Part shown: positions 16,404 through 56,626 of the stretch, one piece after another
How the letters are laid out: every line of letters starts with the position of its first letter
Position numbering within the stretch: position 1 is the first letter of the stretch
Origin: Eledone cirrhosa
Taxonomy: Eukaryota
Direction: 5' to 3'
Assembly: GCA_964016885.1 (NCBI GenBank)
Contig: OZ024743.1
Coordinates: forward strand, 291,214,001 to 291,278,000
Length of the DNA stretch: 64,000 nucleotides
The notes under the pieces: generated by a model
What the model saw: only the letters and a program-made list of their open reading frames with translations
Told to the model about the DNA's origin: nothing
Databases searched by the model: none
Made by a program: the position numbers and the translations under genes

Positions 16404-16836
16404 GGTAAACGGAAAAGAAAATGCTGACGAATTGTTCACAGTGAAAAATAGTTTAATTAGGAATAAGTGAGAATTAGTAATAGTATTGGTTAGTATTCAG
16501 TTTTGGTTTTAAGTTTTACCGGTTGCGCATTTCTAATGCTTTTCAAAAATTATTTTGAGATAGAGCGTCCGTGATGTTTGCTCGGATTTAAAAGTATTTT
16601 GAAGACCTTTACTTCTTTTGTCAGCAAACAAAATGAGATAAGCTGACAGATCTCTGTTTCGTACATCACGGACGCTCTATCTCAAAATTATTTTTGAAAA
16701 GCATTAGAAATACGCAACCGGTAAAACTTAAAACCAAAACTGAATACTAACCGATACTATTACTAATTCTCACTTATTCCTAATTAAACTATTTTTCACT
16801 GTGAACAATTTGTCAGCATTGTATTTTCCGTTTACC
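16404..16836. repeat. inverted repeat, ~174-bp arms, ~85-bp spacer containing a reverse-strand HHR 3' half
   Basis: ggtaaacggaaaa...gagcgtccgtgatgt / acatcacggacgctc...ttttccgtttacc; spacer contains the reverse complement of GTACGAAACAGAGATCTGTCAGCTTA. Confidence 0.9.
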
Positions 16837-16959
16837 AATACATCATAACTTGTGTGTTACACCTCTATTCTTTTAAATATATATATATATATATATATAT
16901 ATATATATATATATATATATATATATATATATATATATATATATATAAATATGTATATA

Positions 16960-54000: not shown

Positions 54001-56626
54001 CCACTTCAAAATTTTTTTTTGGGTGTTAGTAGGCGTCAGTCATCTTACCATCCCATTCCTTCTAACTAGCCTCTATGTCACGTGATTGATTCTTTAGAAT
54101 CGGACATTTGACTGGAAGCAGTGAGAATTTCAGTACATAGAATCCAGTCCTCGCCTAGCTGTTCTTTCTACCGAATTATTATTTTTATATGAGCCGCTAG
54201 TGTCCGCGCATTGCCTGGAGGCTCAGCTGAGAATAGACTCCCTGATGACGCAATGAATTCTCGACAGTTGGATTATGTAACTGTCTTTATCCCATTGCAG
54301 AAACTAATTAGTTGGAGTGAAAATTTAAGTAAGTAAGTAAAAAATCTTTTAAAAAATTTTTTTAAAAAATATTTTCTTATTTTACGTCTTTTATATTATT
54401 GTTCTGCACCCTCCTGCATTGAACCACCTAGGTACTATGACATAACCTGTGTATTTGCTGGCATGGACGTGCATCTGTGCGCCTATGTTAGTTGATATAT
54501 TAAATTATCTATATTTATCTCCAAATCACTGATTTGTCGAGCAAACCTGCCAAAACCACTTCAAAATTTTTTTTGGGGTGTTAGTAGGCGTCAGTCATCT
54601 TACCATCCCATTCCTTCTAACTAGCCTCTATGTCACGTGATTGATTCTTTAGAATCGGACATTTGACTGGAAGCAGTGAGAATTTCAGTACATAGAATCC
54701 AGTCCTCGCCTAGCTGTTCTTTCTACCGAATTATTATTTTTATATGAGCCGCTAGTGTCCGCGCATTGCCTGGAGGCTCAGCTGAGAATAGACTCCCTGA
54801 TGACGCAATGAATTCTCGACAGTTGGATTATGTAACTGTCTTTATCCCATTGCAGAAACTAATTAGTTGGAGTGAAAATTTAAGTAAGTAAGTAAACAAT
54901 TTTTTAAAAAAGTTTTTTAAAAAATATTTTCTTATTTTACGTCTTTTATATTATTGTTCTGCACCCTCCTGCATTGAACCACCTAGGTACTATGACATAA
55001 CCTGTGTATTTGCTGGCATGGACGTGCATCTGTGCGCCTATGTTAGTTGATATATTAAATTATCTATATTTATCTCCAAATCACTGATTTGTCGAGCAAA
55101 CCTGCCAAAACCACTTCAAAATTTTTTTGGGGGTGTTAGTAGGCGTCAGTCATCTTACCATCCCATTCCTTCTAACTAGCCTCTATGTCACGTGATTGAT
55201 TCTTTAGAATCGGACATTTGACTGGAAGCAGTGAGAATTTCAGTACATAGAATCCAGTCCTCGCCTAGCTGTTCTTTCTACCGAATTATTATTTTTATAT
55301 GAGCCGCTAGTGTCCGCGCATTTCCTGGAGGCTCAGCTGAGAATAGACTCCCTGATGACGCAATGAATTCTCGACAGTTGGATTATGTAACTGTCTTTAT
55401 CCCATTGCAGAAACTAATTAGTTGGAGTGAAAATTTAAGTAAGTAAGTAAAAAATTTTTTTAAAAATTTTTTAAAAAATTTTTTAAAAAAATATTTTCTT
55501 ATTTTACGTCTTTTATATTATTGTTCTGCACCCTCCTGCATTGAACCACCTAGGTACTATGACATAACCTGTGTATTTGCTGGCATGGACGTGCATCTGT
55601 GCGCCTATGTTAGTTGATATATTAAATTATCTATATTTATCTCCAAATCACTGATTTGTCGAGCAAACCTGCCAAAACCACTTCAAAATTTTTTTTGGGG
55701 TGTTAGTAGGCGTCAGTCATCTTACCATCCCATTCCTTCTAACTAGCCTCTATGTCACGTGATTGATTCTTTAGAATCGGACATTTGACTGGAAGCAGTG
55801 AGAATTTCAGTACATAGAATCCAGTCCTCGCCTAGCTGTTCTTTCTACCGAATTATTATTTTTATATGAGCCGCTAGTGTCCGCGCATTGCCTGGAGGCT
55901 CAGCTGAGAATAGACTCCCTGATGACGCAATGAATTCTCGACAGTTGGATTATGTAACTGTCTTTATCCCATTGCAGAAACTAATTAGTTGGAGTGAAAA
56001 TTTAAGTAAGTAAGTAAAAATTTTTTTTTAAAATTTTTTTAAAAAATATTTTCTTATTTTACGTCTTTTATATTATTGTTCTGCACCCTCCTGCATTGAA
56101 CCACCTAGGTACTATGACATAACCTGTGTATTTGCTGGCATGGACGTGCATCTGTGCGCCTATGTTAATTGATATATTAAATTATCTATATTTATCTCCA
56201 AATCACTGATTTGTCGAGCAAACCTGCCAAAACCACTTCAAAATTTTTTTTGGGGTGTTAGTAGGCGTCAGTCATCTTACCATCCCATTCCTTCTAACTA
56301 GCCTCTATGTCACGTGATTGATTCTTTAGAATCGGACATTTGACTGGAAGCAGTGAGAATTTCAGTACATAGAATCCAGTCCTCGCCTAGCTGTTCTTTC
56401 TACCGAATTATTATTTTTATATGAGCCGCTAGTGTCCGCGCATTGCCTGGAGGCTCAGCTGAGAATAGACTCCCTGATGACGCAATGAATTCTCGACAGT
56501 TGGATTATGTAACTGTCTTTATCCCATTGCAGAAACTAATTAGTTGGAGTGAAAATTTAAGTAAGTAAGTAAAAAATTTTTTAAAAAATTTTTTTAAAAA
56601 ATATTTTCTTATTTTACGTCTTTTAT
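51020..56626. mobile_element. F2 ~555-bp HHR tandem array (retrozyme-like): ~2.5 units on - then ~7.6 units on +; 11 hammerheads
   Basis: unit starts 51020/51575/52130; inversion ~52408; HHRs on - at 51213-51294, 51768-51849, 52319-52400; CTGATGA on + at 52565, 53120, 53687, 54242, 54797, 55352, 55919, 56474. Confidence 0.95.
52560..52641 (+). ncRNA. type I hammerhead F2, representative array copy (GUU site after 52636)
   Basis: ACTCC-CTGATGA-C-GCAATG-AATTCTC-GACAGTT(GGATTATGT)AACTGTC-TTTATCC-CATTGC-A-GAAA-CTAATTAG-TT-GGAGT. Confidence 0.87.

Follow-up and report, generated by a model that had tools for sequence, protein, structure and literature searches.

A 64,000-nucleotide stretch of the Eledone cirrhosa genome (assembly GCA_964016885.1, contig OZ024743.1, positions 291,214,001 to 291,278,000; hereafter the window, in whose numbering all coordinates are given unless another locus is named) contains six families of type I hammerhead ribozyme motifs, F1 to F6, lying among Penelope-like elements (PLEs). 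The locus raises the question of whether these motifs belong to retrozymes that are moved by PLE proteins and, if so, by proteins of which kind. The first-pass annotation had proposed a local retrozyme-helper system built around Naiad or Neptune PLEs. In our assessment it is likely that Hydra-clade PLEs with a (TA)n target are active in this genome, or were until very recently, and that F1, F2 and F4, and probably also F3, parasitise PLE proteins as non-coding elements.

The evidence lies chiefly in the positions at which insertions end. The F2 unit closes from predicted cut site to cut site at about 555 bp, has a G+C content of 37%, and its longest ATG frame is 27 codons. The window holds two F2 insertions, each between (TA)n tracts. 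Insertion A (17822-19462) has an inverted arm that ends at +83 from the predicted cut (motif 17891-17972, minus strand) and a direct arm that ends at +204 (motifs 18652-18733 and 19206-19287, plus strand), while insertion B (51013-56628) has an inverted arm of three motifs (51213-52400, end +205) and a direct array of eight (52560-56550, period 555/567, end +83). In a set of 23 insertions, 21 of them from a query that holds neither end and two met by chance, 35 of 36 visible 3' ends fall at +79 to +86 or at +204 to +205. One arm stops at about +83 and the other at about +205 in 13 of the 14 complete two-armed insertions (the exception is L002; two more that run past the edge of their locus are left out), and (TA)n adjoins 32 of the 33 ends displayed. 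F2 arrays reach 12 full units (locus L115). Long and short ends are also paired in two-armed insertions of F1 (+141/+166, five of eight) and F4 (+235/+290, five of eight).

A PLE protein has been reported to cut and extend both target strands in vitro, starting at two internal points of its RNA, with the stretch between the two points corresponding to the genomic tail (Frangieh et al. 2024, PMC11167929). The same two-start footprint, or tail, suggests that F1, F2 and F4 were copied by a PLE protein, and given the (TA)n target this protein would most likely be a Hydra one. Earlier proposals that PLEs help animal retrozymes to move rest, in the sources available to us, on co-occurrence, tandem layout and phylogeny of the pseudo-long terminal repeats (pLTRs). 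Where the arrays are purely non-coding, this footprint is a mechanistic mark of PLE proteins; it supports copying by them more directly than co-occurrence or phylogeny do. Short ends come after TTTTA in F2, F5, F6 and the broken element PLE2 described below, and long ends after TTATCTA in F2 and F6; these shared contexts, noticed after the fact, are a weak hint that the coding element PLE1 or a relative moves F2. Between +12 and +70 of the F2 unit, repeats of GTAAGT, which resembles a splice donor, precede a self-complementary A/T tract that slips often and in which many arm junctions lie.

F1, F3 and F4 likewise form closed units, which measure 317, 1003 and 449 bp between cut sites and whose longest ATG frames have 44, 60 and 69 codons, respectively. 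The F1 hammerhead (17271-17316, plus strand, predicted cut after 17311) lies inside an insertion at about 16961-17720. The non-coding F3 monomer is present as 1.5 units at 19552-21086 (minus strand, motifs 20739-20863 and 19736-19860). The F4 insertion (22480-23762) comprises two units on the minus strand (motifs at about 23089-23129 and 22640-22680, spacing 449) and an inverted arm on the plus strand (motif at about 23461-23501) that ends at +290. At least two consecutive hammerhead units occur in the window for F2, F3 and F4 and at L054 for F1. Unit sizes of F1 (317 bp), F2 (555 bp) and F4 (449 bp) fall inside the range of 51-972 bp given in a recent preprint (Li, Clavereau & Pollet 2026, bioRxiv 10.64898/2026.07.22.740005), and that of F3 is just above it. 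By sequence criteria, namely tandem arrangement, one hammerhead per unit and absence of coding capacity, F1 to F4 are retrozymes. First-look candidates in the genome number 2352 for F1, 1063 for F2, 2565 for F3 and 5361 for F4, of which 40 per family were scored. Near-identical units of 311-312 bp, which we call F1b and whose hammerhead has the stem III ACGCGT, form arrays at L051:2130-3146 and L062:1950-3186. F1b, a sister family, matches F1 (75-80%) solely over unit positions of about 62-214, the stretch that holds the two F1 ends, and the hammerheads differ; this common stretch is a candidate protein-recognition region. An F1 half copy on the minus strand (16588-16664) keeps GAAA, stem III, the cut site and the 3' flank, lacks CUGANGA and has a private deletion in common with the copy at 17292-17368. 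It lies in a long inverted-repeat insertion (16404-16850) that took up 77 bp of the adjoining F1 copy, same private deletion included, in a way that resembles a template switch; part of this insertion also matches 27996-28060.

The coding PLEs of the window are not of the type first named. PLE1a (32153-39417, minus strand) consists of an upstream pLTR at about 39417-38644 (F6 motif 38712-38856), an open frame, a long microsatellite-rich 3' region and a downstream pLTR at 32922-32153 (F6 motif 32219-32363). Its frame at 35915-38356, called near-intact in the first-pass annotation, has 813 codons, encodes an RT (reverse transcriptase) and, at the C-terminal end, a GIY-YIG-type endonuclease, and is interrupted by a single TAG at codon 181. 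It carries RWR at 37, DKT at 115, CNCRNKANC (CxCX5C) at 673, CRLC (CxxC) at 771 and CNH (CxH) at 799. The marks of the Hydra clade given by Craig et al. 2021 (PMC8557442) are RWK-like, DKT, CxCX5C, CxxC and CxH motifs and a C-terminal endonuclease, and by eye the PLE1 motif blocks agree with the published Hydra alignment. Naiads are described there as having an N-terminal endonuclease and no canonical hammerheads; Naiad is ruled out by the C-terminal endonuclease of PLE1, its DKT rather than DKA and its hammerhead, and Neptune by the lack of the CX2-5CxxC linker and of DKG. By its motifs PLE1 is thus a Hydra-clade PLE. A (TA)n target and a 3' hammerhead are both present, and the 6.5-kb unit, due to the long 3' region, departs from the clade's tendency to stay below 3 kb, which is not a diagnostic motif. 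Pfam gave no family for either half of the frame, and the 100 listed homologues are unnamed apart from one "hypothetical protein".

Elsewhere in the genome PLE1 is in better condition. Among 130 copies scored out of 46,799 first-look candidates, a number that includes other families, about 33 by hand count lie in open frames of 830 codons with 99-100% identity. Whole units form head-to-tail arrays of four to five with a period of about 6.65 kb (C6:49.53-49.56 Mb and C1:183.74-183.76 Mb), most units of which carry 830-codon frames. In the window, PLE1a is accompanied by an inverted arm at 40182-41091 (plus strand, F6 motif 40742-40886) that ends at +207, giving a 136-nt tail, and PLE1b (41159-47041) is 89% like PLE1a, 5'-truncated and two-armed, with F6 motifs at 41354-41487 (minus strand, end +200) and 46849-46982 (plus strand, end +64). 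Both window insertions with two arms thus show the long and short F6 ends (+64-71/+200-207). Two tandem SINE-like copies sit in the PLE1b arm just ahead of the F6 motif, and a 113/231-bp tandem repeat occupies 42525-43033 in its 3' region. A second Hydra-type family, PLE2, is represented by a broken copy at 25058-27617 (minus strand), whose 3' end is without a CUGANGA core, and by a second broken copy with an inverted arm at 47090-50290. The PLE2 3' end (25060-25290, minus strand) keeps the GAAA...UA half, and a short end and a longer tail are still visible; PLE2 may represent a Hydra family that multiplied while lacking a functional hammerhead or while having one with an altered core.

A layout common to F1, F2, F4 (probably also F3) and the coding families F5 and F6, in which a hammerhead appears to be followed by two fixed RT start points, suggests how copying may proceed. 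A tandem copy would give an RNA longer than one unit. A PLE protein, probably as a dimer, would nick both (TA)n strands and its RT would begin within the RNA, using the near point for one strand and the far point for the other; this step is drawn from the genomic ends together with the in vitro result of PMC11167929. The cDNAs would run back through one to more than 12 units and be joined, yielding the tandem arrays with an inverted arm that are seen, and the (TA)n left on both sides of an insertion, visible in the flanks, would lead to later insertions nearby. The template would mostly be uncleaved or re-joined multimer RNA, because cDNAs begin downstream of the cut site and pass over it as many as twelve times. 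A more specific version can be put forward only tentatively: that a Hydra PLE with dozens of intact copies at present drives the non-coding hammerhead RNAs in trans, by recognition of structure around the two starts rather than of a common sequence, and copies RNA that has cleaved itself and been re-joined. If true, the genome would hold one of the largest known ribozyme loads (about 2 x 10^5, with 14 or more motif types), the family-specific stem III palindromes would let a unit cleave solely beside its own kind, and F2 with the intact PLE1 protein would be a pair for reconstituting the mobilisation of an animal retrozyme and for the question of circles.

In structure the motifs agree with type I hammerheads as known from PLEs, stem III being palindromic. 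The window contains 51 CTGANGA sites, and a descriptor of stem I, core, stem II, GAAA, stem III and UH matches 23 times, as against none in each of 100 dinucleotide shuffles; a narrower descriptor that bars extra bases at the foot of stem II finds two motifs, and the relaxed form was used for the count. BLAST of each motif region against the window returns the copy numbers first listed, namely two F1 (one the half copy), 14 F2, two F3, three F4, three F5 and five F6, and sequence comparison upholds the view that the six families are unrelated, with nothing in common beyond simple repeats. The claim of a full core in every motif holds for 26 of 28, which keep CUGANGA, GAAA and UH, and fails for two of the three F5 copies (CTGAATA at 31897 and CTAAAGA at 50444); all three F4 copies in the window have a stem II or stem III defect. 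A self-complementary stem III was correctly attributed to all six families, except that the palindrome given for F1, AGATCT, is off register: the F1 stem III is ACAG-AGAU-CUGU, self-complementary apart from a central GA/AG mismatch. In most families the foot of stem II is flanked on both sides by one extra base, a feature also of the Hydra motif table of PMC8557442 and partly of PMC4209133, and stem II is long and variable, with inserts that reach 116 nt. Rfam yielded no hammerhead family among 107 matches to the window (E<=1), only microRNA matches driven by microsatellites, so that genomes of this kind probably hold more hammerheads than have been counted. ARAGORN found no tRNA in the window. 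Further core-like sites were rejected as hammerheads: CTGAGGA at 31450 and 56658 belongs to a LINE-like end that is coding, and at 31763/31797 and 50304/50339 paired CTGARGA sites form a fold-back junction.

Constraint on the motifs is apparent from comparison among copies. A descriptor that makes no demand for a palindrome gives 34 matches in 600 kb of flanking and arbitrary sequence (seven over 20 shuffles, or 0.35 each), and of these stem III is perfectly self-complementary in 23 and has one mismatch in nine (32 of 34 at one mismatch or fewer). F2 and its relative at L143 differ by four compensatory pair changes in the stems, one F2 compensatory pair recurs in contigs of an outside sequencing run, and a relative of F3 has replaced the stem III palindrome ACAATTGT by ACGATCGT. 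In the outside-run contigs no listed variant among 27 variable places falls in the F2 core, stem I or stem III; contigs of four sequencing runs show DNA-type variants only and have no bearing on expression. Among 200 copies gathered by homology, with 15 loci that duplicate others left out, the core is preserved in 185. Inherited variants, taken as those common to at least three loci, occur at none of the 66 core and none of the 40 stem III sites, and at 35 of the 789 remaining ones. The first-pass annotation had made better conservation of the core than of the flanks a test of its proposal; with stem III included, the difference is significant (0/106 versus 35/789, p=0.016). Judged from these comparisons, the hammerhead is under constraint during replication. 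Monomers are predicted by RNA folding seldom to form stem III, and cleavage would most likely be slow, taking place in dimers formed by adjacent units or with the aid of protein.

Several observations weigh against parts of this account. The core alone (0/66 versus 35/789) does not differ significantly from the rest (p=0.10), and the units of an array are not independent. Only three of eight dimer constructs (F2, F3 and F5) are predicted to fold into a double hammerhead, the other five not clearly doing so; one of nine retrozyme dimers is reported to have cleaved in vitro (10.64898/2026.07.22.740005), and hammerhead cleavage is described as not needed for insertion (PMC11167929). PLE2 is widespread (1649 first-look candidates), yet CUGANGA is absent from the 3' end in 11 of 11 loci outside the window (L152-L162). 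At 13 outside loci, retrieved by a query containing the single F3 end (+187 to +195), F3 shows that end alone and lacks an inverted arm, which makes F3 less secure as a PLE-copied family. Apart from simple repeats, F1 to F5 have nothing in common in sequence with PLE1 or PLE2, and a search for the helper by shared sequence yielded no candidate.

How far the families are independent of coding PLEs differs among them. The first-pass annotation took F1 to F5 as non-autonomous, retrozyme-like elements or solo pLTRs. This stands for F1 to F4, which are non-coding tandem units, with PLE-type ends in F1, F2 and F4, and falls for F5, whose long end at one outside locus enters the broken frame of a third Hydra family; three F5 copies extended upstream gave no frame. 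The F5 unit is near 4.2 kb and F6, confirmed as the pLTR motif of the coding PLE1 element, belongs to one of 6.5 kb; as coding units, neither is a non-coding retrozyme. F5 occurs in the window as truncated 3' ends of that third family in a two-armed insertion (31559-32096; intact motif 31611-31665, minus strand, end near +59; core-mutated motif 31892-31946, plus strand, end +155), and its ends (+59/+155) are paired in four of four two-armed insertions. A further plus-strand fragment (50290-50545, core-mutated motif 50439-50493) is joined at 50290 straight to the inverted coding arm of PLE2 through a fold-back. Many F5 copies stop at the same hairpin about 165 nt upstream of the cut. That all six families are nothing but 5'-truncated ends or solo pLTRs of coding PLEs is accordingly true of F5 and F6 and as a general account improbable: F1 to F4 close on themselves without a coding frame, F2 arrays of up to 12 units contradict it, and no Hydra-type frame is joined in register at 54 fetched F1-F4 loci, although these are best matches only and rare coding parents could occur. 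A tenable but doubtful account is the classical retrozyme cycle, in which monomers become circles and each array is copied round and round from one monomer circle. Retrozymes of coral, mussel and axolotl have been reported to yield circular RNAs (Cervera & de la Pena 2020, PMC7229834), and F2 units differ at 2.4 variable columns within an arm, 3.0 between opposite arms and 4.2 between loci, with locus-fixed variants; the two arms of insertion B differ by two such fixed variants. The predicted cut is itself the starting point of some F2 arms (at L155 of both, at L118 in two junctions), and 7 of 108 starts fall no more than 5 nt away from it, where about 3.3 would be expected by a hand calculation (p about 0.05), though at least two of the seven are not clean. 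Against a single monomer circle, the 12-unit array at L115 has a variant with a three-unit period, units 6 and 9 sharing a deletion and a substitution, which would fit a multimer template or later duplication, and whole 6.6-kb PLE1 units are tandem too.

The periodic variants at L115 also fit local duplication, and local amplification after PLE insertion is proposed in 10.64898/2026.07.22.740005. That DNA-level events spread the arrays as satellite DNA, the hammerhead being a passenger, is nevertheless highly unlikely, since dispersed loci show the marks of retrotransposition (3' ends that are fixed, 5' ends that vary, inverted arms and flanking (TA)n) and stem covariation counts against passenger status. 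Just as unlikely is the idea of a special locus in which helper and parasites work together, which draws on the 24 strict matches in 64 kb, five times the mean of a sample of forty arbitrary 10-kb blocks (400 kb). Two F2 insertions supply 14 of these matches, and the 24 reduce to eight insertions (ten by a 3-kb rule) as against 3.8 expected; resampling gives P(>=8)=0.08 and P(>=9)=0.046 for a window that had been picked for this feature. One arbitrary 10-kb block has five insertions. The clustering first claimed therefore survives weakly, as a roughly two-fold excess of insertions (P about 0.05-0.08), and is not special genome-wide; the local helper system does not, since the families are found across the genome, the local PLE1 frame has a stop, and intact frames lie elsewhere. 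The arbitrary 400 kb contain 29 motifs in 24 insertions, 14 of the 40 blocks having at least one, at 0.73 per 10 kb (bootstrap 0.38-1.15), and ten shuffles of the same sequence contain none. Extrapolated, this amounts to about 2.2 x 10^5 motifs genome-wide (1.1-3.4 x 10^5); 14 stem signatures are seen. In a genome so rich in these motifs, nothing sets the window apart as a place. Shared (TA)n targeting would lead insertions to pile up, and PLEs are described in a review (PMC6765202) as inserting next to earlier copies. At least eight further hammerhead families, often as inverted pairs, are seen in flanks and controls (for example L080, L093, L099, L100, L107, L131 and L148), with stem III sequences that include ACCGCCGGT, ACCACTGGT, ATGCGCAT, ACTGATCAGT and AGGACT.

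The partnership concept, the motif type and the clade are already known. PLEs have been discussed as candidate helpers of metazoan retrozymes with circular RNAs (PMC7229834), and retrozymes have been argued to derive from PLEs in 10.64898/2026.07.22.740005, among whose genomes, in the text available, no mollusc appears. Like metazoan non-LTR retrozymes as described in these papers, the families here are non-coding tandem units of low G+C beside PLEs, with one type I hammerhead each. They are unlike typical retrozymes in their PLE/Hydra-type motifs and in that F2 and F3 exceed the usual 150-450 nt, and unlike in those papers the PLE link comes from insertion ends (two fixed starts, inverted arm, (TA)n). 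Whereas retrozymes elsewhere have RNA evidence, F1 to F4 are known here from DNA sequence. An octopus Hydra element with a hammerhead, Hydra-1_Obim, has been published (PMC8557442); by eye its hammerhead matches none of F1 to F6. The elements here resemble the Hydra clade of that paper in motifs, C-terminal endonuclease, (TA)n target, 3' hammerhead, short palindromic stem III and often extra stem II bases, and PLE1 departs from its Hydra PLEs of under about 3 kb in being 6.5 kb per unit, very young and abundant. Non-autonomous tandem elements are named there for Chlamys (MRC1), with none named for Hydra in the text available.

Anolis Poseidon (PMC11167929) is similar in its two internal RNA starts, the cutting and extension of both strands, the AT-rich target and a hammerhead upstream of the starts. 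Its tails are 30-40 nt, compared with about 25-136 nt here, and it is a coding element studied in vitro, whereas the footprint here belongs to non-coding families and is read from genomic ends. With the PLE hammerheads of Cervera & de la Pena 2014 (PMC4209133) the present ones share a palindromic stem III, an additional base where stem II begins, the presence of many unrelated families in one genome and an expectation of slow dimer cleavage; variants by Lunse et al. are cited in the review PMC6765202. The extrapolated load greatly exceeds the 2,000-9,000 minimal motifs that PMC4209133 gives for a genome and is near the 126,247 given for axolotl, by methods that differ in both cases. We found no description of F1 to F6 in the literature searched; Repbase, Dfam, subscription journals and preprint supplements may list them. 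What is added here is the new families, non-coding arrays that bear the two-start footprint, a high number of motifs, and a parasite and helper that can be tested as a pair. With young parasites (99% alike) next to intact candidate helpers, both the helper and the circle-or-multimer question could be addressed with the published in vitro assay.

The window has further repeats. A broken PLE of another clade lies at 417-3142 (minus strand), with a Pfam RVT_1 match below cut-off; from its motifs we take it to be Poseidon-like. A very abundant SINE-like (short interspersed element) repeat of about 185 bp occurs at 46468-46864, 7087-7334, 13271-13435 and 63352-63489. Two 3' fragments of a LINE-like (long interspersed element) repeat, presumably RTE-like, lie beside (TA)n tracts at 31212-31452 and 56656-56896. 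The window also contains a near-perfect fold-back of 340 bp at 50636-50977 and a pure (GAA)67 tract at 14089-14288.

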